Assembly: GCA_958009085.1 (NCBI GenBank) | Contig: OY253672.1 | Coordinates: forward strand, 248,001-312,000 | Direction of reading: 5' to 3' | Source of the DNA: Protoeuglena noctilucae | Lineage: Eukaryota | DNA: 64,000 nt | In this document: in pieces, positions 1-57,968 of the stretch | Layout: each line of letters begins with the position of its first letter | Position numbering within the stretch: the stretch's first letter is position 1 | The notes under the pieces: generated by a model | What the model was told of the DNA's origin: nothing | Seen by the model: only the letters and a program-made list of their open reading frames with translations | The model's database searches: none | Position numbers and translations under genes: made by a program

Positions 1-3000
1 ACGCTGCCAGGGCAGCTCCTGGGGCGTCTTCGCTGCGCACTGCTGCGCCCCTCGCGCGGGGCTGGCTGCTGGGCCTGCGGTCTCAGCCGCTGCCGTTGTC
101 GTGGCTGGCCAACGGCGTCACGCGCACCTCTATGCGATGCCTCGCTGGCAAGGCGGACGGTCGTCCCCGGCACGTGAAGCCCGAGCTGCCGCCGGACTTC
201 AGGCGAGTCAACCGAGTCGTTCCCGAGCCGTTCCGCCCCGCGCCTTCAGTGCTGTGGTGGCGACACCAGTGCAGTGGGGCCACGCCAGCCGCATCGACCT
301 GCCCGCTCGCTCTGCCTTGCAGCATGACAGAGGTGACGGCCAGCGGGTGCTGCGAGGGGTGCGGGGTGACGTTGCAGAGGGAGGACCCCGACAAGCCCGG
401 TTTCTTCCGGGTCCCCGAGAAACTGATCGAGGAGATTCTGGCAAATCGGCGGGCGGCAGCAGAGGGGCCTGAAAGTGAGGCCTGGGGTCTGCGCACGAGC
501 GCGAGAGTAGCAGCTTGGGTCTTGGTGTGACTGGACCAAGTGCATGGCCCGCGCAGGCATGGCGGCGAGGATTCGCGAGGCACAGGAGGCTGAGGATATG
601 GAGGGCGAGGGAGACGAGGAGGAGTTGGGGGAGTTGATGGGCGCTGATGGCTTGGACGACGCGGGGCGAGCGGGGGCCGGGGGCATGCCTTGGGAGGAAG
701 GGGGCGACGAGGGGCTGATTTCCATGGTGGTGGACGACCCGGAACTCGAAGCGCGGCTGGGAGGGGGGCGGAGGGACCGGGGCGGGTACGTGCGGGACGA
801 GGAGATTATGGAGATGCTGGAGGGCGAGCGGCGAGGGGTCACCGGGGCAGAGGTGGGTTGGGCCGTGTCGGGAATCTGATGAAAAGGTCTGCGAGTGTTT
901 GGTTCGAATATGCATGGCCTGTGTGCGTCGCTGCAGGCGCTAGCTCTGGAGGGCAACTACGCGGGGGAGGGCGTGGACGTCGTGGATGCGTTTGGGGCCA
1001 TGGCGGAGAGCTGGCTGGACGGGGGCCAGGGGAAGCGGCCAGCTATGCGGGACCAGGACATGGCCGGCCGGCCCAAGGTCCTCTGCGCGCGGTGCTTCAG
1101 GCGAGGGGCATGGTGGCGGGCATGGGTCCGCTGGGGGCGGGCGAGGTGATGCTGAGCGATTCAACAGTCGAGGGGTGCTATGACTCTCAGAGCCACGCCT
1201 TGCGGCAGAAGTGCCGTCCCCCGGGGCAGCTGACACCCCGGGGTTTCCATCGTTGCAGTGCATATGGCACGTGGCCCGCCCCCGCTAGGTCTCCCCACCC
1301 GAAGGCAAAGGGGTCGCCCACCCCGGGTTCTTGCACCCCTAGCCCCCTCGCTGCGCCCTAGGGCAGAATCGCCGTCCCAGAGTGGGACGATGCAGCCACG
1401 GGGGCGGGCGAGGGTGTGGGGGCACGCGACGCGACGCCCTTTGCCTATGCGCAGCCTGATCAACTACGGGCGCGTCAAGTCGGCGGAGGCAGAGGCACTG
1501 CTGCCCGAGTTCGACCTGCGCCGGCGGGTGGGGCGCAAGCTCGAGTCCCTCCGCGGGCGCAAGGGCGTCGTGGCGGTGGTGGTGGACGTGGCGGACTTTG
1601 ACGGCTCCCTGCCCCGATGGGCCCTGCAGCAGCTGCTGCCGCGCGACGCGGAGGGGCGCGCGTGCACCACGCCCGGCGTGCGGCTGGTGGTGCTCGCCAA
1701 CAAGGTGGACCTGCTGCCTCGATACGTCTCCGCCGATCGCCTCGAGATGTGGGTCCGGAGGCGCGCGCGGCAGGCGAGGAGCGTGGCGGGTGGGGAGCCC
1801 GCACGGTCAGCTGCGTCAGGCCCGTGACCACCCTCGCGCCCTCCCCCGTGCCCAGGGTGGCCTGCCCCGCCCTGACGCGGTGGTGCTCACGTCCGCGCGC
1901 ACGGGGTTCGGCATCGCCAGGGCCGTGGAGGAGATGGAGGTGCTGGCGGGGGACCGTGGCCAGGTTTTTGTGGTGGGGGCCCAGAACGCGGGCAAGTCAT
2001 CCGTCATCAACGCTATGGCACAGGTGGGGGAGGTGGCCGCCTCAGGCAGACGCTCTCTGCGACGCAGTGTGGCCACTCTTTGTCCGCGTGTGCCCCCGCC
2101 CGCAGCTCCAGGGCCACCCCCGCCCCCGCATCACCACGGCTGCGCTTCCCGGCACGACCCTGGGCGTGATTGAGGTGGACGGCCTGCTCCCCGGTAAGGC
2201 GCGCCTGTTCGACACCCCCGGCGTGCCGCACAATTACCAGCTGTCGAGCCGCTTGGGGAAGGAGGAGCTGGACCTGGCCATGCCCTCCAAGACGCTCCGG
2301 CCCCGCACCTACCGCATCGGGGCAGGCAGGAGCGTCAGCATCGGGGGCCTCGCCCGCCTCGACGTCATGGGCCTCTCGGGGGAGACGCTCTACATGACGG
2401 GTGGGGCCTGGGGATGGCTGGGGATGAGGGTGGGCCTGCACCCGCCACGGCTCATGTTCGTCATGGTCTGACGCCGGGCTCTCCGCCCCCGCAGTGTGGG
2501 CCTCCCCGTTGCTGGTACTGCACATGGGCGTGACCAGCAAGGCGGAGGAGGTGCGCGAACGGCACTTGTGCGGCAACCTCCGGCCGCCCTTAACTCGAGA
2601 GCGTACCGACGACATCGGACCCCTCGTGCCCACCGGTGAGCCGCTTCACCTGCCGCAAGGATGGCGTCGCATTTGCACATGCCTGTCCCCTGACGCCAGC
2701 CCTCCCCCCCGGCAGACGTGGTGGTCGAGGGCACCGAGTGGCTGCAGTCCACGGTGGACGTCCACGTGGCGGGCCTGGGCTGGGTGGGGGTGGGCATCAA
2801 GGGCCGCGCGGACTTGCGCGTCTGGGCGCCCCGCGGCGTGGCCATCACCACGCGGGACGCCCTGGTCCCCGACTATTCGGACCAGTTCGAGCGCGCCGGG
2901 TTCTCCGAGAACGCTGCGCAGCTTAAGTACGAGGTGCGGATGCCAGGTGGCGGACAGGGGAGGTGGCAGCGATCACTCTGGAACGGCCCCAGTCAAGGGT

Positions 3001-3273
3001 GTGTCTGAGGCTCTCATTCGACGAAGCGATCGTGTGGTGTTCACATCCATGCATGTTTGATGCCCGCAGGTCGCAGGACAGCCCGCGCCGGGGAAGGCCC
3101 GGGCGGGCAGGGACGCCAAGCGACCCGCCAAGGGCCGGGCGGGTGGGGCGAGGGACAGGGCGCCCTCCTCTGACCGCGACAAGGGCACGCGCGGGGGAAA
3201 GAGCCACGGGCAGGGTTCGCCGCAAGCTGAGGGGCGTAGCAACGGCCGTACTCAGGGCCAGATGGGGGCATGA
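1..3273 (+). CDS. Circularly permuted GTPase of the YqeH/NOA1/BPG2 family (organellar ribosome biogenesis); multi-exon, 5' end probably upstream of the window
   Basis: Zn-ribbon halves CEGCGVTLQ and CARCF; VVDVADFDGS, NKVDLLP (G4), VVGAQNAGKSS (G1), PGTTLG (G2), FDTPG (G3) in permuted order; SIGGLARLD and VAGLGW C-terminal motifs; stop TGA 3271-3273. Confidence 0.88.
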
Positions 3274-3352
3274 ACAAGGGCCGGTGGGGCAGCGGGCGCT
3301 TGAATGGGATGCCCACGATCAGAGCCACGACGCTACAAGAGCCATTGGCATT

Positions 3353-4732
3353 CTATGACCCCCGCTTGACACCCCACACGAGCGCCCAGTCCCCCTCCCG
3401 CTCGACCCTCACATCCGTGAGGTGCTCGCTGTATTCCCGCACGATCCCGTCCACCTGCGCCTCGACGATCCCCGACACGGCCACGCGGGCGCCGACCGCC
3501 GCGTAGCCCACCAGGCGATCTCGCAGGTCCAGAAGCGGGCCCTGCAGTATGTTGGCCACCACGATGTCGAACCTCTCGCCCGCGAGGGGCGTCGCGTCCT
3601 CGGCGCTGGGCCCGCACACCACGCACGCAAAGCGGCCGTCCACGCCGTTGGTCTGGGCGTTGCGCGCCGCCACCCGCACCGCCAGCGGGTCCGTGTCGGT
3701 GCCGCGCGCCTCCGCCGCGCCCATCAGGATCGCCGCGATGGCCAGCACGCCCGACCCCGCCCCGTAGTCCAGCACTCGGTCGCCGGCCCTCACGTTCCGC
3801 TTGAGCCATGACAGGCACAGGCGCGTCGTGGGGTGCTCCCCGGTGCCGAACGCCAGACCCGGCTCCAAGATGATGTGCAGGGCGGGAGCGGAGGGGTCGA
3901 GCGGGGGCGGCTGCGGAGGCCAGAGGGGGACTGCTCGAGCGTGGGTCTCGCGTGGCAGGCTCGGGGCAGGCACGTGGCGGCCCGTGCTTCTCGCCTCGCT
4001 GCCCTGGGGCACCACCCAGACGCCCTCGCAGGCGAGCACCGGGCGGAAGGCCTCGCGAACGGCCCGGGCCCAGTCCCCGACCAGCACCTTCCCCCTGGCG
4101 AAAGGCAGCGGCCGGCCCACTGCCTGCGAGGCCATCCGGACCGCCGCCTCGGCGTCCGCAGACGCCTCCAGGAACGCCACGACGTCGCAGGTGCGCCACA
4201 GCGCCTTCCCCGCCACATGCGCGTCAAAGATCTTCTCGCGCTCCTGTCCGTCCGGGCGGTGCTCTTCGATCAGCACGCTCACCCCCATCTCCATCTGAGT
4301 CTCGCACGACGTGAGGGTGATGTCATCGGCACCGGCGCAGGCGCAAGAGTGTTGTTCCAGGCCCAGGCGTAGCTTGCCACTGGCCAGCCTCACCAGGGCC
4401 TCCGAGATGAGCTCCGCCTCTTCGCCAGAAGCCGCGGGGATTGTGATCTTCACGCTCGCGACCTCGTCCGGGGACGCAAGAGGGTCGCCGACCGCCGCGG
4501 CGCGGCAGGGACGAGGCGGGGAGGGGCGCCCGTGTGCGCCCCAGCTGCCAGGAGCCTTTTTCCCGGACCCAAGGCGCCGAGCAGGGGCCCCAGCGAGTAT
4601 CTCACCGGCAATCGTCATCCGGCGGGGGTCGGCGGGGCGGGGGACCGGCTGGCGCGCGGCGGAAACGGTCCGCGCGGCCGCCGCAGCTCGCAGCGTCGCC
4701 TGCATCGCGCGGGCCCACGTGCGCGCAGCCAT
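3353..4732 (-). CDS. prmA: Ribosomal protein L11 methyltransferase (PrmA family) with organellar transit peptide
   Basis: LEPGLAFGTGEHPTT, VLDYGAGSGVLAIAA, GTDTDP, FDIVVANIL, SGI motifs; probable in-frame introns 4295-4393 and 3911-3994. Confidence 0.93.
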   Translation of the reverse strand: MAARTWARAMQATLRAAAAARTVSAARQPVPRPADPRRMTIAGEILAGAPARRLGSGKKAPGSWGAHGRPSPPRPCRAAAVGDPLASPDEVASVKITIPAASGEEAELISEALVRLASGKLRLGLEQHSCACAGADDITLTSCETQMEMGVSVLIEEHRPDGQEREKIFDAHVAGKALWRTCDVVAFLEASADAEAAVRMASQAVGRPLPFARGKVLVGDWARAVREAFRPVLACEGVWVVPQGSEARSTGRHVPAPSLPRETHARAVPLWPPQPPPLDPSAPALHIILEPGLAFGTGEHPTTRLCLSWLKRNVRAGDRVLDYGAGSGVLAIAAILMGAAEARGTDTDPLAVRVAARNAQTNGVDGRFACVVCGPSAEDATPLAGERFDIVVANILQGPLLDLRDRLVGYAAVGARVAVSGIVEAQVDGIVREYSEHLTDVRVEREGDWALVWGVKRGS

Positions 4733-4741
4733 CGTAGGTAT

Positions 4742-5207
4742 CTAACGCTCCAGAGCGCGCTGGTACGTGTTGTAGTTGAGGAGCTTCTCAATCAAGTCGA
4801 CTGCGTGGGGAGAGGACGGAGCGGCGTCAAGACGCATCGCCTCGGACCCTGCAGGACGCGCGACGACGGCCTGATCCGGCACATATTACTCACCATGGGT
4901 CAGTAGCATCCGACGGCAGCAGTAACGAACCAAGTGGAGCATGTCCAGCGCTTCCCTGGGGCCACCGGTGAAGGGGCTCGGTGGACAGCGCGGAGCTGAA
5001 GGCAAACATCGCCCCATCAGGTACACAGTAATGCAGCGATTCAAGTAGCATACCATCCTGTGCTCGCCAGCATCAAACCAAGCTTCCGCGGGACGCCGTG
5101 TCCTGCGCTCACTTCTCAGTGTAGCCGCTCTCGAGTAGCGACATGTAGTCGTCCCACTTGTCTCCAATGACCTTCCCGCAGGTAAAGCAGCGGACGGGGA
5201 TGATCAT
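4742..5207 (-). CDS. RPB10: DNA-directed RNA polymerases I/II/III subunit RPABC5
   Basis: Three exons give [18 protein letters not shown]...YTEK / [20 protein letters not shown] / [19 protein letters not shown], the RPB10 signature. Confidence 0.97.
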
Positions 5208-5539
5208 CGCGGCCAGTGGCCCCAGGGGCACGTCCGACAGATAATCTAGGCACGCCTCCGGCCACGGGTCGGGTTGCAGGCCGACGGACCAAGTCGTGGG
5301 GACTTCTGCGCACTGTCGGGGAGCCCTGGCGGACTCAGGCTCCTCGGCAAAGTTGCCAGACTTCATGGATCTGGCAAGCCCTGAAGCCAAATCAGCTCGC
5401 ATCGCCCACGCAGAGGGATCGCATTGATCGCGTCGTCGTCGTCGTCGCTTGGTTGCAGCGGTGCATCCATCGGCGTTGCTACACCCCTCCTCGTCCACAC
5501 CCCGTTTCCACGAAGCGCGTGGGGCCCCGGTCGCCAAGG

Positions 5540-6736
5540 ATGGCTGCAGCAGGAGTCGGGATGGGGACTACGCTAGCTCTGCACACGTGTACTCCGCTCT
5601 CAGGTGGTGGCAGACGTCGTTGAGGAAACCCCGCACAATACTAGCCGAGCTGTGATCTGTCGAGCTGCTCGATTGCGCTCAAGTTGTTTTTCCATGCCAC
5701 GATCGTATCGAGAGGACACGTTCCATGCCTGCTGGCCCGCGGCAGGGTCAGAACGGGGCCCGCACATCGCGTCCTCGCAGGACGAGGCCTCGGCTGGAGG
5801 CCTGGGCTGTGGCAGGGGCATGCACAGCGCGCGTCGTGCAGGTGTGGACTCTGCGATGTTCAATGCATGCCGCCACACCACCTGAGCCATCGATCGCAGC
5901 GGAAGTCCGCCCGACTGTTGCAGGCGCACCGTCCCGCGCGCGTCGTGGGTCGAGAACTCGGCCGAGGTGGAAGTTCCTGCGCCGGTTGAGCTATGCTATG
6001 AGATGTGGAGCGACCGCGCACGCATCCCGTCCTGGATGCCATGGATACATGCTGTGGAGGTGAGGAGACCCCTGATGGCGACTCGATTGCCATCGCCCAG
6101 CGCCGATGGAGTGCCCTCTAGTGTCATGCTGGCACCACTTTGTCATCCCTGTCATCGCATGACCCAGGACGTGCCTGCGTCCTCCCCTCTCATGCGCAGG
6201 TGCAGGAGCGCGACGAGAAGCTCTCCAAGTGGATTCTGCGCACCAGCGCCTTCAATCGCGACTGGGAGTTCTCGTGGCTGGCGCAGAACCTCGCGCCCGT
6301 GCCCCTGCAGAAGATCCACTGGCGCTCCGTGCCGGGGTCCGTGGGGGGGTCGCTAGGCTCGGGGATCGAGGTGCCCAACCGCGGGCAGATCCGGTTCGCC
6401 AAGCTTGGGGCGGAGAAGGTGCGTTGCGTTTGCATGGCCGTCGCACGGAGAGCGCCACTGGGCGAGCCGACTGGCAGAATTGCATGGCATCAGAAACACA
6501 ACTGCAGCTGGCGGGACTCGAACCGAGCTGTTTGCCAGTCCGTCACCCGCCCACGTCGCCCTTGCCGTGCGCAGACGCGCGTGACGTTAACCATCAGCTA
6601 CGAGGTGCCCTCCGTGCTCGTGCCCATCGGATCGGGGCTGTCGCCGTTCGTGGAGAGCATCCTCACGAAGGACATGGGGCGGTTCAGAGCGGAGGCCGAG
6701 AAGGAGCTTGCCCACCGGCAGAAGGCCGCGGCATGA
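5540..6736 (+). CDS. SRPBCC/polyketide cyclase-dehydrase family protein, probably plastid-targeted
   Basis: [70 protein letters not shown]; start codon and first exon are inferred. Confidence 0.8.
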
Positions 6737-6836: not shown

Positions 6837-8065
<1,229 letters not shown>

Positions 8066-25898: not shown

Positions 25899-27535
25899 TC
25901 ACCGCCCCTCCGCCCCCCGCAAGGCCTGCAGCGACTCCTCTCCGTCGCGAAAGGACGTCCACAGCCTGACCTCCTTGCCCAGGGCAACGCCCGCGGCCTG
26001 CATGCAGCGGGGACCGCACGTCGCCCCGCCCCTAAGGACGACTGGACCACCGCCCTCGCGCTCCCGCATCGCCCCCCGCTGCCCCGCACCTGCGTGACCG
26101 CCCCCAGCGCCGCCAGCCGCGAGTCCCCGAACCGCGCCGCCACGATCCGCTCCGCGTCGCCCATGAAGTCGAAGGGCAGCGACGACCGCGCCCGGTGCGG
26201 CGACAGCACCACGTCCTCGGCGTGGGGGGCACTCTCGTCGGGGAGCACCCCCTGCCCGCACCCCTCCACGGCCCCCGCGCACGCGCGGTACGCGTCGCGG
26301 CACGCCCCGACGATGTCCTGCTGCAGCGACAGCAGCGTCACGCTGACCCACCCGTTGTGCATGGCCCACGCGTCGGACGCCGGCGTCTCGTCAAAAACCA
26401 GCTTCCCGTAGCGCTTCCGGAACACGCGCGGGGCCCCGCCGGCCCCCGCCACCCCGGACGACGCCCGCGCCCCTTCCTGCGCGCTCCCCCGCCCCGACTC
26501 GCCCCCCTCGGGCGTCGGCGGCGCCCCGCCCCCCTGGTACAGGTCCACCTCCTTCTCCAGGGCCTCCTCGGACGAGGCAAGGGCTTGGGCCTCCGCGCCC
26601 TGCACCTCGCTCCAGTGGATCATGAGCGTGCTCAGACCCTGATACGTCACGAACAGGCCCTGCGCATGGGGCGGGCACGCGTCGGCGCAGACGCAGTCGG
26701 CCTCGGCTCGCGCTCTCTCCTGCGGCGCGCCCGCACCTTGGTGTCCTCGAGGCTGCGCATCGGGAAGTTCACGTTGATGACCGTTCCGCGCAGGCTCTGG
26801 AGGGCTGCGGCCTGCTCGTAGGGGCGGAGGCCGGGCAGCGGCAGCAGGCCCAGGACGGCACGGATGAGAGCCGCCGCGATGGTCGCCGCGTGGCGGTAGT
26901 CGGGCGGGCCCCGGTAGTTGTCGAGGGAGAGGGCCAGCGCAGGGATCCCCAGCATCGCCCCCTCTCGCGCCGCCCCGACCGTCCCGCTGTACACCACGTG
27001 CATGCCGCAGTTGTCGCCTCGGTTGATTCCGCTCACGATGAGGTCGAACGTCCGGCCCCCAAAGAGGTTGCTGCGCGCCAGTGGCAGTTTGGCACTTTCC
27101 GCAGCCTGCCCTGGCCGCAAAGTGGCTTGCCAGCGACGACACAGCACCCCACCTGTTCAGTGCAAGCATGGCGGAGTCTGCCGGCGACCCGTCAGTGGTA
27201 AAGGCGCCGCCATCGACCGCTCCTTCGACGTTCCAGGGCTTAACCGTCAGCGGCAGCCCGAGCGTGATCTTGCTACTCTGCGCGCTCCTCTCCCCGTCCG
27301 GAGCCGACACGTAGATGTCGCAGAAGTCCATCGCCGACACAACGGCCACGAGCTGCCTCAGGCCCGGAGCCTGAGGGCCAAACGAGGGCGATTCGGCCTC
27401 GGGCAACTCGGCCTCGCATGCAGACATGCCCGGGCGCCCGGCGGCTGCCTAGCACCGCTGACGCACCTCAATGCCGTCATCATTGGTAACGAGGATGCAG
27501 GGGCGGATCGCGGGTCTTGCGGCGCCTGGCGCCAT
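25899..27535 (-). CDS. surE: SurE-family 5'/3'-nucleotidase/phosphatase
   Basis: ILVTNDDGI, VSAPDGERSAQS, DGSPADS, DLIVSGINRGDNCGMHVVYSGTVGAAREG, INVNFP, SDAWAMHNGWVSVT. Confidence 0.92.
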
Positions 27536-28370: not shown

Positions 28371-29883
28371 ATGGCGGATGCGGCGGGGCAGGCGGAGGTG
28401 GAATTCGAGGACCTCGGCCACGGGGCGCCCTTCCTGGCGCATATGGCGGCTGGGGCACTCGCAGGCGAGATCTGATGCGATGGTGGGGCGATTCGGGAAG
28501 CCGTGGGATGAGGGGGCTGTGGGTCCCAAGCTCTGCTCATCTCTCTTTTCTCCCAGGTGTCACTGAGCACTGCGTGATGTTCCCCGTGGACACGATTAAG
28601 ACGCGGCGGCAGGTGGCATCGGCGTCGGGGCCCAGCCCGTTCAGCGCCCCCAGCACCAGCGGTCGGCACGAGGGGCAGGCGCATGGGCTGTGCCGGACTC
28701 CAGCCCCCACGTCAGCCGCGATGCGGTGAGGGCGGCGCGCGCGGTATCACGCGAACTTTTCCGAAAGAGACTGGCCTAGATGAGCTCATTGACGCCGCAG
28801 AAGATCTGACATTGCCGTGCCGCTACGCTACGCCCTTCCCAGGTCCGTGGGGCAGGGGGCAAGCGTGCGGCCGCCCGTGCTGGTGCTGCCCAGGAAGGTG
28901 GGCTACCTCCCCCACGCCAGTCTGCTCGGCGTCATCAACAGCCAGGGCTGGCGGGGAGTTCTGCGCCTGTACAAGGGGGTGGGGGCGGCTGCGGCGGGGG
29001 CGGGGCCAGCCCACGCCGTCTACTTCTCCGTCTACGAGGCCGTCAAGGCGAGGGGCGCTCGTCAGCATGCGATGAGTGATGATTGATCTTGGCCTCATCA
29101 CACCGCCCCTGCGCTGTCGCAGGCGGGCATTGTGGGCGAGGACGGGGACGAGGCGCCCCAGCCGCACCCCGTGGGGACGATCGCGGCGAGCGCGTGTGCC
29201 ACGGTCATCAGCGATGGTCTCATGACGCCCGCAGACGTGATCAAGCAGCGGCTGCAGGTGGGTCGACCGTACACATTTGCCGTGGATGGCAGCCACGTGG
29301 CCTTCGCTCCTCCGCGGTGGTTAACGACGGTGCCCGTGCCCTCTGCAGGTGTGCAACAGTCCGTACAAGGGCGTGGTGGACTGCGCCGTCAAGCTCCTAC
29401 GGTACGAGGGCCCCTCGGCCTTCTACCGGTCCTACTCCACCACGCTGCTCATGAACCTGCCCTTCGCGGCCGTCAACTTCGGGGTCTACGACCTGTGCAA
29501 GAGCACGGTCATGGCCACCACCGACGCCCCACCCGTCGCGGTGCACCTCGTGTCGGGGGCCGTGGCAGGGGGGTGCGCGGCCGCTGCCACGACGCCCATG
29601 GACGTCATCAAGGCGAGCAAAGGGCCGTGCTGCGGTGGGCGGATCCCCGGGGGCCGAGCGCCGCCTCTTCCACGAGATTGCGCCGCCACCGTGGCCCTGC
29701 CCGCAGACGCGTCTGCAGACGGAGGCGGTGGAGCGCAAGCCCATGGCGGTGCTGCGGTCCCTCTTACGCCAGGGCGGGGCCCGCGCCCTCTTCCTGGGCG
29801 TGGGGCCCCGCGTGTGGTTCCACGTCCCCGCCGTGGCCATCTGCTGGGCCACGTACGAGGCCTGCAAGTCCCTGCTCCTCTGA
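28371..29883 (+). CDS. Mitochondrial carrier, mitoferrin-like
   Basis: [92 protein letters not shown]. Confidence 0.92.
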
Positions 29884-32328: not shown

Positions 32329-35300
32329 ATGGATATCAGGAATTTCTTCAACAAACCGTCAGGAGGAAAGGCTGGAGCGTCGCTGGAGCAGAAGTCGGCT
32401 TCAAACACGGATGGGGAGAAGAAGCCGCAGGTTGGTAGGCCAGCATTGGGGCCCACCTCGGGATGCGCCCTCTGTGCACGCCGCGTGCCCAGGACGCACC
32501 ATCTGCACTCGGCACGTCTGCGCAGGCCGCCGGACCAAAAGTACCAGCAACCGAAGTGAAGGCGGAGGCGAAAACCGGGGCGTCGCCCGTCGGCGGGCAC
32601 GCGCAAAAGCCATCGTCCACGTCCCAGACCCGTGCCGCCCCGGCCGGCGCCGATTCGCAGGTGGGGCGCCGCCTTCTTGTCCAAGCAACCTGTCGATATG
32701 ATTGCGGTGCATTTCGTGTGCGAACGCGCCTCTTGTCGGGCGACTGGGCACGCCTGGGAGTGTCGATGTCCGCGTCTCTGTTTGACCCCTTGGGCAGAAA
32801 CCGACGAAGCCTCGGAAGACCTTCGTGGTTTTGGAGGACTCGGATGACTCGGATGATGTGATGGAGGTGGTGCCCAAGGCCTCTGGGAAGCGGCAGGCTC
32901 AGGGGTCGAGCGCTGCACCGAAGAAGGGGACCCCTCAAGTGAGAGTCTGCCCTACCCCGAGGGGACCCCGAGCTGCTTGGCAGGTGCTGGCATCGGCCGC
33001 AAGCAGGGCGACGGCATGATGCAGCGACCTCGGCTACCTCGCCTTGGTGCTGCAGAAGAAGCGCCAGGTCGGCATGGACGAGGACGACTCGGACTGGGAG
33101 GCGCCTGGGGGCGAGGGCGCAGACTCAGAAGACGAGGGGCTCGCGGGCGGACGGCCCCAGAAGAAAGCGCGAGGCGGCAAGTCGCCCGGGAAGGGCAAGT
33201 CCCCTGGGCTGTCGGCCAGGGGCGCGGGGCCAGGGAAGGGCAAGGTGTCGGCGAAGGAGCTCCGGGAGCAGCTGACGGACACCGTGAACGGGCCGGCCGC
33301 CCTGGAGGCGACGGCGAGGGCCGTGGCGCGCTTGCCCCCCGATGACGAGGCGAGGGCCGGGTGGGAGGGGCACGAGGGCGGGTGCGATGGGCGCCGTCCA
33401 CGCCATGCGCTCGCGCGTCGTTCGCCCGCAGGTGCGGTTCACGCTAGTGGTGAGCGACTTGCCCGGCTGGCAGCCGATGGCCGGGGAGCAGGTGCCGCCG
33501 CGCGCGGGGCAGAAGGAGGCCCCGTCCGGCCACCCCGACTGCCTGAACGGCCTCACCTTCGTCATCAGGTGCGGTGGAGGGATCCTGACATCGCAGCGGC
33601 TGCGACCTGCATGGTGTGCGTCGAGACTCACCGGCGTTTCTTTTGCCCCGCAGTGGAATCCTGGACAGCCTCTACCGCGATCAGGCGGAGGCCCTCATCC
33701 AGTCCCACGGCGGCCGCGTGACCAAGGCCGTGTCGGGCCGCACGAACTTCCTGCTCGTTGGCACGGAGGCGGGCAAGTCCAAGGTCCAGGCGGCCAAGGT
33801 GAGGCGGCAGCTAAGCGACGACAGCACACACAGGGGGGAGCGGACGAGCGGACACGGGGTTTTGGACCTAAGGCATGCGTTACGTGAGCAGCAGCGGGAG
33901 CGGCCGCCCGCCTCTTTTGCAGGACAAGGACGTGCGCCTGATTGACGAGGATGGCCTGTTCAGCCTCATCCAGGCATCGTCGCACCTCGTGGCAAAGGCA
34001 GCACCCCCCGCTGCCCATGGGGGGCGGGCGACGGCAGCCGAGGACCACCGGCGAGTGCATGCGGAGGTGGCTGGCTCTGTGCGTCGCTGCCGTAGGGGCT
34101 GGGGTCGATGGGGCAGCACCCTTACCTCTCCCGCAGTGCCGAGGCGCGTTCCCAGCCGACCCAGTCGCAGCCGCCGGCAGGGCCCAAGGGCACGGGCGGG
34201 GACGAGCTGTGGGTGGAGAAGTGGAAGCCAAAGGTGAGACTCCCAGTGCAGGCGCAGGGGGTGACCACCTGGTGACCGTGTCAGGCCACGTTGCGATGGA
34301 GGTACTCGCCAGGCATGCGCAGCGGAACTTACGAGCACCGTCCCGCGTCCTCCCCGCCTCCCCCGCAGCGCCCCTCGGACCTGGTGGGCAACGCCCTGCA
34401 CGCGCGGACTCTCGAGGTCTTCCTGCGGCAGTGGGACGCGGTGCACCTGCATGGTCGTCCTCCCGCTCCCGTGTCGGGCACGGCCAAGCACCTTGACCTG
34501 ACGAAGAAGGCGGTGCTGCTGTCGGGGTCGCCCGGGGTGGGCAAGACCAGCGCGGCGCGGCTGGTGGCCGAGGCGTGCGGGTTCCGGGTGGTGGAGGTGA
34601 ACGCCAGCGACACGCGCAACCAGTCGGACAAGAGCGCCCAGAAGGGCATCAACAGCAAGCTCTCCAACATCGTCAAGGAGCTCGCCACCAACCGAGGTGA
34701 GGGGAGGGGCGGCGGTGCTGATAAGCGATGCTAGCGCATGAGTGGCAGCCACCGCTATCGTCGACGTCGCTCCCAGCCATCGGGAACAAGCCCGTGTGCC
34801 TGGTGATGGACGAGGTGGACGGCATGAGCGCCGGGGACCGTGGCGGCGTGGCAGATTTGATTAAAACCATCCAGGCGTCCAAGATCCCCATCGTGTGCAT
34901 CTGCAACGACAAGTACGCGCAGAAGCTGCGATCCCTGCGCAACCACACCCTGGAGGTGAGGGGAGGGGCTGGGCCGACGCTAGGGGCCATCGCATGCATC
35001 GCTCACGCGAGGGATGCGCGCTCCTTGTCCCTATGCATGTACCAGTATCGTTTGTCCGTGCGCTGTGCAGTTGGACTTCCGCCGTCCGACCAAGGACCAG
35101 GTGGCCAAGCGGCTGGTGGAGGTGTGCCAGCACGAGGGCCTAACGACCAACCAGGCGGCGCTGATGGCCCTGGCGGAGATGACCAACGGGGACATTCGCA
35201 TGGCGCTGGGGCACCTGCAGATGGTGCGGCTGCGGTCCAACCGGCTCACCTTCGACGACCTCAAGAAGGCGAGGAAGGGCCACCATGCCCAGCGCTGGCC

Positions 35301-36822
35301 CATGGCAGTCTCAGGGATGGGGCACCTGAGACCCGCCCCCCGCCTCTGCATCCCCAGGGTCGCCTGGGCGTGGAGAAGGACGCGGAGATGTCCCCCTTCG
35401 CGGCGGCCAATGAGCTGCTGACGGCGGAGAGGGCCGCGCAGCTGCCCCCCCTGTCGCAGCGCATGGAGTTGGTCTTCCAGGACATGGACCTGGTGCCGCT
35501 GCTCGTGCAGGAGAACTACCTCAACCACAGGCGAGGGAGAGGGCGAGGGAGATGAGGGGCTGCCATGCTGCGTCACGCTTCACGCCCACCCTTGAGCCCA
35601 CGTGCAGGCCCATGGTGGCGGGGAGCGAGATGCAGATGATGATGTGTTTGGCCAAGGCGTCTGATGCTCTGTCTGCGGGGGACATCGTCAACCGCAGCAT
35701 ACGGCAGCACGGCAACTGGGGCCTCATGCCCTTCGCCGGTGAGGGTCGAGGAGGGGTTGGTGGCAGTCCAGATTACTGCGACGCTCTGTCACGTGCCCGC
35801 CTCCACCCATCCCTCTCCCACCCCATGACATTACCCCGCCCCCTTCTCCCCCAGCTGCCCTCGGGAGCGTGACCCCCTGCGCGTACATGCGTGGCCCCCG
35901 CGTCCTCCTGGGCTTGCACCCCGGCGAGGCCAACTTCCCGCGCTTCACGGCGTGGCTCGGCAACAACTCGTCCGCGGGCAAGCAGCGGCGTCTCCTGGAG
36001 GACATCCACACGCGCATGACCGCCTCCTCCCACGTCCACTGCGACAAACGGGCCCTGCGCCTGGGTGAGGGGCAGACCGTGCATGGGAGATGGTCAGAGA
36101 GAATGCCCGGCAGATGCCATGCGAGTGGCATGGCAGCCCCGTCATCCTGGGCATCTACCCATCGCACCGTGGCTGTTCCCTTCTTGCAGACTACCTGCCG
36201 TTCCTGCGCCGTCACTTGGTGTCCCCCCTGGTGTCGCGTGGCCAGGACGGCATCGAGGACGTGGCGCGGGACATGCACGAGTACTGCCTGGTGCGGGAGG
36301 ACTGGGAGACGGTGGGGGACATGACCAAGTTCAAGACCAAGGCTGCGTGGGGGGAGGACCCCCTCAAGGGGGTGGAGGGCAAGACCAAGGCGGCGTTCAC
36401 GAGGCGGTTCAACAAAGAGGGGGTGCGCGCGAGGGTGGGGACGATGGTGGAGGAGGTGAAGCGTGTGAAGGGGAGGCGCGGGGCGAAGGGGGCACAGGAG
36501 GAGCCGCCTCTGACGGAGGACGCGGACCGTGTGGCGGAGGCGGCGATGGAGGAGGAGGAGGAGGAAGAGGAGGAGGAGGAGGTGAGGGGATGGGGTGCAT
36601 GGGTGTGGAGGAGAGGTGAGGGGTATCGGGCACGTGAGGAGTGCTGGGGCGTGGGCATGCATGCATGATGGATGGATGAGGCCGTTGCCTCCGCAGGCGG
36701 GAGGGCCGCCCAAGGGAGTGGCGCTGGTGGCTGCGGAGGGGAAGGGGAAAGGCAAGGGGAAGAGGGCCGGGGGCGCAGCGTCAAGCAAGGCCAAGCCGGC
36801 GAAGAAGGCCAAGAAGGGGTAG
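32329..36822 (+). CDS. RFC1: Replication factor C subunit 1
   Basis: MDIRNFF; BRCT domain (CLNGLTFVISGILDSL..GGRVTKAVSGRTNFL); LWVEKWKP; LLSGSPGVGKT; EVNASDTR; MDEVDGMSAGDRGG; ICICND; RFC1 C-terminal domain. Confidence 0.96.
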
Positions 36823-47382: not shown

Positions 47383-50845
<3,463 letters not shown>

Positions 50846-54472: not shown

Positions 54473-57400
54473 ATGTCGCTGAGGGGCCTGGTCACGGGGA
54501 CGGACGCCTGCACGACCGCCGACGCACCCGGCCCCTCCAATCCTCTCTCGCGCTTGGCCGGTGAGATATAGGACGCCCCTGGCCGGTCTGGCTGAGCGAG
54601 TGGAATGTCCGACCTGGTTGTTTTAGCGCGACGGCCAAGAACACGCGTTTGCCGCACACGCACTCAGATGCGCTGCTCAACTCGGTCGGTAAGGGCGGGA
54701 CCAGCGGCCAGGAACTTCCGCGACATGTGCGTCGTGAGGATGGCGCAAGCGGCTCACAGACGGGGCATGGGCTCCTCGCGCCAGGGCGGGGGCCGCAGGG
54801 ATTCGGGCCAGGGATCTCAGGTCCGTCCAGGGGGCGACGCTCGGCCTCGAGACTGTTCGCGTTGCATTTTTATTAGATCCAGGAAACGGTCGATTCATGG
54901 TGCCTGCCCTGCAGAAGCCGACGTGAGCGAATTTCTCCGCGGGCACGGCCCCGGGTTGGCGGGCGATGCCGCGCAGCGCGCTGCGTTCGAGGGCGCTTTC
55001 CAGGATGCATCCAGCAGCCGTCTTCATCTGCCGATGGCAGCCGACCCGCACCTGCGACTGGAGGCACACCTGGGCACCTTTCTGCGGGGCGGTCCAGTGG
55101 AGCAGGCCGGCCCGCTCCCTCACCCGCTCAACGTGGAGCAGCAGGTGAGGATCAGAATGGTTAGAGTCGTTGCTAACCATTCACGTCCTGCGCATGCGCC
55201 GGGAGCGACTGGCCGCTCTCCTTCGCGACCGCCCCCAGGTGCGCATCCGTGACCGCTGCACCATCCTCGCCAGGCACGTCTTCTCCTCGCGGGAAGCGGA
55301 CGAGAGGGTGTCCGACCTGCTGCGGTTTTTCGGCATCGACGCGGCGCGGCTGCCCATGCGGCTTCAGGCAAGCAGACCCGCGCGAGGCTGGGTGCGTGAT
55401 GCCATGCTGGGAGAACCGGTGGTCCCGAGACAGCAGCCCGCGAGCGGTGGCCGCAGAAGGAGTGGGAAGCCGCGTGGAATGGCGGGAGTCAGATGATGAC
55501 GGAGCCACCAGCGTGGGTTGACGACTTCCAGCGCCGCCTGCACATCAGCGCCAAGCAACCAGCAGCGCAGCAGGTGCGGCTCGGCAGTCGCAGGCGCAGT
55601 CGCAGCGCACGTGGTGGGAGATCGCAACAACAAGCTCAGTGGCTCGTTGCAGGGGCTGGACTGGGCCAGGGAGTTCGGTTCTGCGGCGCCCAGTGCTGCC
55701 ACGGCGGCCCCTGCGTCATGGGGAGAGGAGTTCGCCGCGGACGGTGCCCGGGACAGGCCGGCCGAGGCGTGGGCGCAGGACTTTGGGGAGCAGGAACGGG
55801 CGCGTGGCCGGGACAACCCCCCCAGCGTGGCCGCGTCCTCCGCCGCGCTGGCCCAGGCGCTGCTGTGAGGGCCACAGCTGCACCGCGCTGCCCTCCTGCA
55901 TGTAATATCGCATTGGCATCTCATCGTGCCTCCCCTGCCCTCGTCGCAGGTCCTCCGACGACCCCAAGATGCAGCAGTCGGTCTTTGCGTCGTTTGTGTC
56001 CAAGATGAGCCGAGGGGAGCTGTCCATTGAGGGGAACAGGGTGGTGGAGGGCGCTGTGGCCAGGCAGGGGGACGCGTGGGCGGGGGAGTTCGCTGAGGTA
56101 AGGAGCCCGGCGTTGCTTGCCCAGGCAGCGGCCGGCAGGGAGCGGGCCGGGCGTCACATGCTAACGGCACTGCTCCCGCAGACGCAGCGTTCCGGAGCCG
56201 AGGGTCGCTGGGCGGACTCGTGGCTGCGGGAGTTCGAGGGCGCCCCCCGCGCCCAGGCGGACCTGGGCCAGGCGGAGCTGGGCGTGTCGGGGGCAGACCT
56301 GGCGGCGTGGGTGGAGGACTTCCATCGGGCGGCGACCGAGGCCGGGGCGCCGGGGCAGCTGCAGGAGCTGCAGCGGGTGTGGGCGGAGCAGTTCGGGGGC
56401 GGGATGGCGCACGAGGACCCCTGGGCAGAGGAGTTCATGGCGGCTGGGGCCGGGGGGTACCGCTTCCATCCGGACAACCCCTTCGCCGGGGATACGCAGG
56501 CGCTGGAGCGAGGGCGAGCGCTGTTCGCGGAAGGCCTCCTCAGCGAGGTGGGTGGGATGCGCTGGGCATGCGCGCTGGGGATGCCTGGGCTGCATGGCTC
56601 CCTGCCGCCCCACGTGCCGCGCCTCATCTCTCGCTGCAGGCCGTGCTGGCCTTGGAGGCCGCCGTTCAGCAGGAGCCGGGGAACGCGGAGCGGTGGCGGC
56701 TGCTGGGCGCGGTGAATGCGGAGAACGACGACGACGGCCAGAGCATCGCGGCCATGCGCGAGGCCCTGCGCGCCGACCCGGCCAACCGGGAGGTGCTCAT
56801 GTCCCTGGGCGTGTCGCACACCAACGAGCTGCACGAGAGAGACGCCATTGGCTTCTTGCGCCGGTGGCTCGAGACGCACCCCACGTACAGGCGCGTGGAT
56901 GGAGCAGCGTGCAGCGTGCGAGGGTCGCATGTCCACTGCGCGTCTGTACCTTACGACGACCCGCGTTTCTTCCGCAGTTCCACCTCCCTGCCCACCCACG
57001 CCGACTCTGAGCCTGGGGCCCTCTCCCGGGCAACAGCGGAGGCCTTCGCAGCCCTGGCGCAGGCCCACCCCCACGACCCGGACCTCTTCATAGGTGAGAG
57101 GAGGGAGGATGCGGAATAGCTATGCTCCCAGTGCATGCGCCTGCCTCGTGTCTCATTACACTCGTTACCCCTCCCCCCAGCCACTGGCGTGCTGCACACG
57201 CTGCATCGGGACTATGACTCCTCCGTGGAGGCTTTCCGACGGGCCCTGGACCTGCGGCCCCACGACTATAGCCTGTGGAATAAGCTTGGCGCCACGCAGG
57301 TGCGTGGGTGGGGTACGGCACTCGGGAACGCCACGCATGTCATGTGTGGGGGCGAGAAGGGATGGACAGCATCGTTCGGCGATTTGTTCGCACAGCGGTG

Positions 57401-57968
57401 CTGGGCCACCTGTGCGCAGGCGAACGGGGGCCACAACGAGGAGGCCATCGCTGCGTACCGGGAAGCTCTGCGTCTGAAGCCCAACTACCTGCGTGCGTGG
57501 GTCAACATGGGCATTGCCCACGCCAACCTGGGCAAGTACGTCCAGGCGGCGGAGGTGTACCTGAGGGCCCTGGCCATGAACCCAGGGGCTGACCACGTGT
57601 GGAGTTACCTCCGCAACGCCCTCATCTGCGGGGCGCGGCACCACCTGGCGCCGGTCGCAGAGAAGCGGGACATCCCCGCACTGCAGGTAGGCACGCTCGA
57701 CTGGTGTGGAATGTGAAAGACTTGCTTTCACGTGGTCGGGCTGTGACCGCCGTGCTTGTGTCGCGCGGCTGCATGCGTGCTGCTATGATCCTCCCCGCAG
57801 GCGGCGTTGGCGCAGGAGGCGCAGCGCAGGGCGCAGCTGGCGGGACCCGTGGCTGGGCCGGCCATGCCGACGGAGGTCGCCGCGGATTACGTTTCCGGGT
57901 TCCTCCAGCAGCGAGGGGAGCTGCCTGCCACACAGGCGGGCGAGAGCGCGTTTGTGGGGACGGCATGA
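54473..57968 (+). CDS. PEX5: Peroxisomal targeting signal 1 receptor
   Basis: N-terminal conserved Cys (TDACT..SNPL); at least nine WxxxF motifs; PEX7-binding-like KMQQSVFASFVSKM; TPRs (LGVSHTNE, SLWNKLGATQAN, LKPNYLRAWVNMGI). Confidence 0.95.

Follow-up and report, generated by a model that had tools for sequence, protein, structure and literature searches.

Background

The question raised by the locus described here is whether one nuclear messenger RNA (mRNA) carries two complete protein-coding genes, which are separated by only 9 nucleotides (nt). It is found in contig OY253672.1 of Protoeuglena noctilucae, in a stretch of 64,000 nt (positions 248,001 to 312,000 of the contig) which we will call the window. 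The window has a G+C content of 68% and contains no N; all coordinates follow its own 64-kb numbering. The first gene codes for RPB10, the small zinc-binding subunit common to RNA polymerases I, II and III. The second one codes for a protein of the PrmA family. Both are found on the - strand, so that the unit is read from 5298 down past 3353.

At the junction the RPB10 frame ends with GAG CGT TAG (4750–4742, with the stop codon TAG in 4744–4742 by direct reading of the sequence). Directly behind the 9-nt spacer, at 4732, PrmA opens with ATG GCT GCG. The initial annotation of this DNA, made from the letters alone, had placed the RPB10 stop, the spacer and the PrmA start in these same positions, and all of them are borne out. 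It had also argued that there is no room between the two frames for a 3' untranslated region (UTR) and a new promoter. This is true, but in a compact genome it is still compatible with overlapping transcripts. The surroundings are indeed compact, with four genes within about 4 kb.

Nuclear transcripts with more than one open reading frame (ORF), the upstream one being short, have been documented in green algae, as the initial annotation stated (Gallaher et al. 2021, PMC7896298; Duenas et al. 2025, PMC11892635, with preprint PMC11291117). They form a class of hundreds of polycistronic loci and dozens of high-confidence bicistronic loci, found in Chlamydomonas reinhardtii, Chromochloris zofingiensis and Auxenochlorella protothecoides (PMC7896298, PMC11892635). 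From the data presented below we conclude that RPB10 and PrmA are probably carried by one bicistronic mRNA, whatever the route by which the second frame is translated.

RNA contigs across the junction

Our evidence comes from three marine metatranscriptome samples of a single study (X1, X2 and X4) and from one DNA run (X7), whose contigs we have compared over positions 2500–6500. In all, four RNA runs of this study contain the stretch, as do DNA runs which are labelled with one organism. The RNA data are assembled contigs: a contig which extends across two genes does not show by itself a single transcript. All four introns of the locus are spliced out in the three RNA runs and retained in the DNA run. 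The junction between RPB10 and PrmA is crossed by spliced contigs in each of the three RNA runs. Record 3 of X1 (955 nt) is composed of the segments 5298>5112, exon 2, 4800>4394 and 4294>3995: it contains a leader of 91 bases and all of RPB10 in spliced form, and continues through the spacer into the first 639 nt of PrmA. Record 6 of X2 extends from 5296 to 4624 and has an overlap of 29 nt with record 5 of the same run (4652 to 2715). Record 10 of X4 covers positions 4786–4632, also across the junction.

These contigs derive from RNA and not from contaminating DNA, because three observations separate them from the DNA run. Nine splice joints are present in the RNA runs in the 2500–6500 region, none in X7. 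Bins which contain part of an intron carry exactly the share of depth that corresponds to the exon: in X1 the bin 4778–4911 has a depth of 9.63, which is 41/134 of 31.5. Finally, the stretch 5299–5416 has no cover in any of the three RNA runs, whereas X7 covers it at a depth of 286.9. The RNA depth found in bin 5314–5447 is only the share of + strand contigs which start at 5417 (X1), 5437 (X2) and 5432 (X4). No silent gap of this kind is found ahead of PrmA in the three RNA runs. The contig depth on either side of the junction is similar, 31.5 and 30.6 in X1, 9.56 and 11.3 in X2; this match gives a weak hint in favour of one transcript.

Several observations weigh against a shared mRNA. The contigs of X4 have a depth of only 3.1 over RPB10 but of 6 and 7.63 over PrmA, an imbalance which would also fit additional transcripts of PrmA only. 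Record 5 of X2 fuses the 3' end of PrmA with a convergent transcript of the + strand through the joint 2931>3068, which is GT..AG on the + strand; therefore the assembler can merge overlapping RNAs. More generally, contigs cannot prove that both frames are found on one molecule, and all the RNA data stem from a single study.

These points lead to an alternative explanation with two separate mRNAs. RPB10 would be polyadenylated inside the 5' region of PrmA, PrmA transcription would start inside the last exon of RPB10, and the assembler would have joined the two RNAs through their shared sequence; record 5 of X2 shows such a fusion. Overlapping transcription has been described for very compact eukaryotic genomes, and here four genes share about 4 kb. 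A tight spacing appears to be common in such genomes: in a picoalgal PrmA locus (L004) another gene of the same strand ends 100 nt upstream of PrmA. Besides the excess of PrmA depth in X4, record 10 of that run starts at 4786, within exon 3 of RPB10. Other features go in the opposite direction. The RPB10 introns are not covered by RNA, so that a separate PrmA transcript would have to start in the last exon, which has only 59 nt, or else be spliced like RPB10. In X1 and X2 both sides of the junction have the same depth, and X1, which is the deepest run, has no loose or extra contig ends there. A silent promoter gap of 118–140 nt is found upstream of RPB10, none ahead of PrmA. On these grounds two overlapping mRNAs seem unlikely to us, and a single bicistronic mRNA is the reading that we prefer: each of the three RNA runs has spliced contigs over the junction, and the layout fits a published class, even if the proposal of the initial annotation that one mRNA encodes both frames is thereby supported and not proven.

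The two genes

The upstream gene codes for RPB10. Its exon 1 corresponds to positions 1–29 of the 58 positions of the RNA_pol_N profile (PF01194) and exon 2 to positions 32–51. Splicing gives a frame of 71 codons and a TAG stop (216 nt), with cysteines at residues 7, 10, 44 and 45 in a CxxC ... CC pattern; we take them to be the zinc ligands. Such a small upstream gene is easily missed in annotation.

The identity of the second gene is also clear. Its frame matches the Pfam family PrmA (PF06325), the ribosomal protein L11 methyltransferases, with E 1.9e-58 and 198.7 bits (cut-off 22), and the solved structures of Thermus thermophilus PrmA (PDB 1ufk/2nxc family) with E 2.8e-25. The motifs DYGxGSG, corresponding to the glycine motif which binds S-adenosylmethionine (AdoMet), and ANIL are invariant in the alignment. 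The best Pfam stretch covers residues 281–455 of a genomic ORF of 459 codons (4732–3353), which appears uninterrupted. The family assignment stands, but this ORF contains two introns which are removed in RNA. The long genomic frame is an accident, because both introns are multiples of three and have no stop codons; the real protein has 398 residues. Naive gene calling at this locus thus yields a protein with false residues: the PrmA gene call found in the database (450 aa) carries 61 of them, which come from the unspliced introns. The 84-nt GC..AG intron is kept in one short contig, record 2 of X1 (3883–4024, 142 nt), with a depth of 9.2 as compared with about 31 in the spliced contigs. It represents partial intron retention or pre-mRNA; if it were translated it would add 28 residues in frame.

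The N-terminal region of PrmA has the composition of a presequence. Among its first 92 residues there are 24 Ala, 13 Arg and 12 Pro, while no acidic residue is found before position 35, which has the first one, so that its description as similar to a transit peptide holds well. Homologues of PrmA likewise carry N-terminal extensions of 60–100 residues. Judging from homology and from this N-terminus, PrmA may act in an organelle. The conserved N-terminal domain of the green-lineage proteins starts at about residue 90 in the spliced form, and ahead of it in-frame ATGs are found only at codons 1, 10 and 39. The G+C content by codon position (GC3) has no clear periodicity in the presequence region and does not fix the start codon. 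Any of the three starts lies at most 123 nt from the RPB10 stop, so that the case for a bicistronic mRNA is independent of which ATG is used.

The coordinates of all features are collected in Table 1.

Table 1. Features of the RPB10-PrmA locus in window coordinates, in the order of transcription
Feature	Position	Strand	Evidence
RNA-silent stretch, probable bidirectional promoter	5299–5416	.	X1, X2 and X4 contigs against X7 depth 286.9
Transcript 5' leader, about 91 nt, without ATG	5298–5208	-	Contig starts at 5298 (X1 record 3) and 5296 (X2 record 6)
RPB10 exon 1, start codon 5207–5205 (gcg ATG a)	5207–5113	-	Pfam RNA_pol_N E 1e-13; joint 5112>4954/5 in three RNA runs
RPB10 intron 1, 157 nt, GT..AG	5112–4956	-	Joint in X1, X2, X4; none in DNA run X7
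RPB10 exon 2	4955–4894	-	Pfam RNA_pol_N E 8.1e-8; spliced frame intact
RPB10 intron 2, 93 nt, GT..AG	4893–4801	-	Joint 4800>4894 in X1, X2, X4; none in X7
RPB10 exon 3 (59 nt) with TAG 4744–4742	4800–4742	-	Sequence, spliced frame
Inter-ORF spacer, 9 nt, ATACCTACG	4741–4733	-	Sequence; crossed by X1 record 3, X2 record 6, X4 record 10
PrmA exon 1, start 4732–4730 (acg ATG g), presequence-like N-terminus, conserved N-terminal domain begins	4732–4394	-	Sequence, alignment
PrmA intron 1, 99 nt, GT..AG, in frame, stop-free	4393–4295	-	Joint 4394>4294 in X1, X2, X4; not in X7
PrmA exon 2	4294–3995	-	RNA contigs, spliced protein
PrmA intron 2, 84 nt, GC..AG, in frame, stop-free	3994–3911	-	Joint 3995>3910 in X1, X2, X4; not in X7
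PrmA exon 3, catalytic methyltransferase domain, TAG 3355–3353	3910–3353	-	Pfam PrmA, PDB
3' untranslated stretch under RNA contigs	3352–3140	-	X1 record 1 ends at 3142, X4 record 8 at 3138

Proposed translation of the second frame

If the two frames share one mRNA, how would PrmA be translated? In our proposal one capped nuclear mRNA would start near 5298 and run on the - strand past 3353. It would carry two independent frames, RPB10 with 71 codons and then a PrmA-type lysine methyltransferase with 398 codons, and the two proteins would be made separately. The RPB10 AUG, with G at -3 and A at +4, would be the start used by most scanning 40S subunits, while a minority would pass it together with the four AUGs found inside RPB10 and start at the PrmA AUG. 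In this way a single promoter would give a large amount of RPB10 and a small amount of PrmA. For this statement as a whole, with a bicistronic nuclear mRNA, two separate proteins and PrmA produced by leaky scanning, we consider the chances evenly balanced.

The start contexts agree in direction with leaky scanning: gcgAUGa in ORF 1 and acgAUGg in ORF 2, so that among all these AUGs the one of PrmA, with A at -3 and G at +4, is in the best context. The four internal AUGs of RPB10, three of them in frame and one out of frame, are in poor context in three cases. The junction does not fold better than shuffled sequences (z -0.18) and no Rfam match is found in 2500–6500; taken together, these two results speak against an element similar to an internal ribosome entry site (IRES).

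Other figures are unfavourable to leaky scanning. With its purine at -3 the RPB10 AUG is not clearly weak, on a scale which is not that of the host's own consensus. The 316 nt upstream of PrmA contain 5 ATG, with 3.76 expected (observed/expected ratio, O/E, 1.33). ORF 1 without its own start contains 4 ATG, with 2.86 expected (O/E 1.4), a number reached by 34% of the shuffled sequences. Since AUGs are not depleted ahead of PrmA, leaky scanning is favoured but not secure, and reinitiation across the 9 nt has to be considered.

In this alternative the bicistronic mRNA is the same, but PrmA would be made mainly by ribosomes which have translated RPB10, or have started at one of its three in-frame internal AUGs, and which terminate at the RPB10 UAG. 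Part of them would remain on the mRNA and restart 9 nt downstream at the well-placed PrmA AUG. The AUG content of ORF 1 is contrary to the selection expected under leaky scanning. Of the internal AUGs, three share the frame and the stop of RPB10, and the fourth one opens a frame of only 3 codons. Classical reinitiation, however, fades when the first frame exceeds about 30 codons, and it needs a longer spacer in order to reload the initiator tRNA. In viruses the termination upstream ribosome-binding site (TURBS) has a UGGGA motif some tens of nt upstream of the stop/start site. Here UGGGA occurs once, at mRNA position 143. This site, 174 nt upstream of the PrmA AUG, does not have the placement of a TURBS, and the lack of a special fold at the junction also counts against a restart. 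Published inter-ORF regions are much longer than our spacer, with medians of 40–183 nt, higher rates of reinitiation accompany inter-ORF regions of a few bp (PMC11892635), and a form mediated by 80S ribosomes, independent of cis-elements, has been reported in yeast (PMC11952965). In vivo data in two green algae, on the other hand, support leaky scanning and disfavour both reinitiation and an IRES (PMC11892635). We consider unlikely that reinitiation is the main route to PrmA in this mRNA.

If PrmA were nevertheless made without leaky scanning, by ribosomes which restart 9 bases behind the 71-codon RPB10 frame, which we find rather improbable, the AUGs tolerated in RPB10 would be explained. Furthermore, the output of an enzyme which modifies organelle ribosomes would be tied to the translation of a subunit common to the three nuclear RNA polymerases. 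Given one bicistronic mRNA, leaky scanning is the better supported route and we favour it.

Programmed read-through of the RPB10 UAG into a functional RPB10-PrmA fusion, in which the presequence would be internal and the enzyme kept outside the organelle, is highly improbable: it has no support beyond the shared frame (9 = 3 x 3), a one-in-three chance event without weight by itself, the bases after the stop (AUA CCU ACG) are not known as a read-through context and have no special fold (z -0.18), and the TAG is unchanged in the RNA contigs. About one third of the published algal loci are also in phase, and the authors of that catalogue used this proportion as an argument against read-through (PMC7896298).

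Limits of the transcript and neighbouring genes

The transcript start and the length of the leader are taken solely from the ends of RNA contigs. Upstream, the silent stretch 5299–5416 separates the RPB10-PrmA unit from a divergent gene and is a probable bidirectional promoter. This neighbour is found on the + strand in 5417–6418 and starts 118–140 nt from the RPB10 transcript start. It has three GT..AG introns (about 5601–5777, 5837–5918 and 6058–6197) and a (GTC)5 run in its leader, at about 5432–5447.

At the other end, a convergent gene of the + strand is found in 2715–3170, with an intron in 2932–3067 (GT..AG on +). Its RNA overlaps the 3' untranslated region of PrmA. The ends of the RNA contigs of X1 (3142) and X4 (3138) are not read as a poly(A) site, because a break at 3141, possibly due to the assembly, is found in the DNA contig of X7 too. 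In X7 the region 3065–3170 is broken into several short variant contigs; the breaks near 3140 point to a repeat or to an allelic difference. The modelled mRNA contains neither TGTAA nor AATAAA, but these words may not be the poly(A) signal of this lineage, so their absence is uninformative.

The rest of the window carries ordinary eukaryotic nuclear genes, seen as exon-sized pieces of ORFs. On the - strand we have found a COQ5/UbiE methyltransferase (6840–8037) and SurE (26650–27156). On the + strand there are a mitochondrial carrier (29455–29880), RFC1 (34276–36665), an FtsH-type protease (48971–50011) and a TPR protein (57120–57713). From its proteins the source is identified as a marine green alga which has no closely related annotated species. 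The nearest named one is Pedinophyceae sp. YPF-701, with identities of 43% in PrmA and 69% in FtsH. Trebouxiophytes and chlorophyceans have 37–42% in PrmA and 63–64% in FtsH, Prasinoderma coloniale 63% in FtsH; one further relative reaches 81% in FtsH.

Conservation and previous description of the pair

The pair RPB10-PrmA is absent from the supplementary tables of the two published catalogues (PMC7896298, PMC11892635), as far as these are accessible, including the Chromochloris PrmA homologue Cz16g06020 and its numbered neighbours. A full-text search of the literature did not find any paper on a bicistronic or polycistronic RPB10-PrmA pair. We conclude that it is probably a further locus of the established green-algal bicistronic class, with a pairing which is absent from the searchable published lists.

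Metagenome loci do not help the case for the pair. Among the matches listed, none of 80 loci has a sequence similar to RPB10 near PrmA (best tblastn E 1.6). Ten of the PrmA loci listed are of eukaryote type by their best hit (L001–L009 and L014). The initial annotation had pointed to synteny of RPB10 and prmA in other chlorophytes as a way to check the pair; it is not seen in any of the eight eukaryote-type picoalgal loci listed which have at least 1.2 kb upstream of PrmA. Their identity to our query is 37–38% (39% for L014) and they belong to a different picoalgal group, so that no more can be drawn from them than a lack of generality of the pairing. The closest PrmA relative has 46% identity over the intron-containing ORF, 54% to the spliced protein. 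When prokaryote genome contigs were scanned with this relative, one bacterial locus was found, with 30% identity. Two of the picoalgal loci deserve a comment. In L004 (1121–3745) the gene which ends 100 nt before PrmA, an ORF of 431 codons in this case, codes for a protein with an LsmAD domain. In L005, whose DNA has 71% GC, Pfam gave no match for five long ORFs; their frames are probably wrong.

Comparison with known systems

Overlapping transcription in compact genomes resembles our locus, since in both cases neighbours are close and RNA extends over more than one gene. In those genomes, however, the downstream frames are generally thought to remain untranslated, whereas the layout found here matches loci in which both frames are translated.

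As regards the enzyme, the PrmA-like protein At5g53920 of Arabidopsis methylates the plastid ribosomal protein L11 in vitro (PMC3991674). The PrmA of the window shares with it the Pfam family and the green-lineage group with N-terminal extensions, and it keeps the motifs GTGEHPTT, DYGxGSG and ANIL, which are invariant in our alignment. The Arabidopsis gene differs in that it is not reported as bicistronic. The pair CDC26-TTM3 of land plants and green algae offers another parallel: its single mRNA codes first for a small regulatory or structural protein and then for an enzyme, and each frame is translated on its own (PMC11892635). Its proteins are different and it is deeply conserved, whereas conservation of RPB10-PrmA was not found in the loci that we examined.

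The closest comparison is with the bicistronic nuclear genes of green algae. Their published medians are 291–357 nt for ORF 1, 40–183 nt for the inter-ORF region and 54–83 nt for the 5' UTR; the start context of ORF 1 is weak, and the medians of AUG O/E are 0.48–0.49 upstream of ORF 2 and 0–0.71 in ORF 1 (PMC7896298, PMC11892635). Our locus has the same organization: two conserved non-overlapping ORFs of the same strand are found together on spliced RNA, here in contigs and not in single molecules, with a small ORF 1 (216 nt), a short spacer (9 nt) and a short leader free of AUGs (about 91 nt). The better start context of ORF 2 agrees in direction, with the reservation that the RPB10 start still has a purine at -3. 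In several published loci ORF 1 also codes for a small subunit of the transcription machinery (Pol III C11, RPC9, TFB5 and ELF1), and most published pairs have products without an evident functional link, as it is the case for RPB10 and PrmA.

The locus also differs from the class. AUGs are not depleted in it, neither upstream of ORF 2 nor in ORF 1, a difference which counts against our interpretation, although such depletion is a statistical trend of the class and not a strict criterion. The 9-nt spacer is found at the short end of the class range; in A. protothecoides there are loci with overlapping stop and start codons (preprint PMC11291117). Also, the locus comes from a marine green alga without close annotated relatives and is known here from contigs alone, outside the three species of the published catalogues.

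Bicistronic nuclear genes are well established for chlorophytes, so that one more locus leaves the general picture unchanged. However, its distance from the three catalogued species adds evidence that the bicistronic habit is widespread in green algae. Within the class it is an outlier, by its 9-nt spacer and by five AUGs ahead of ORF 2 without depletion. These features make RPB10-PrmA well suited to decide, as a natural test, whether the second protein is made through leaky scanning only or whether reinitiation has a share in it when stop and start codons nearly touch.

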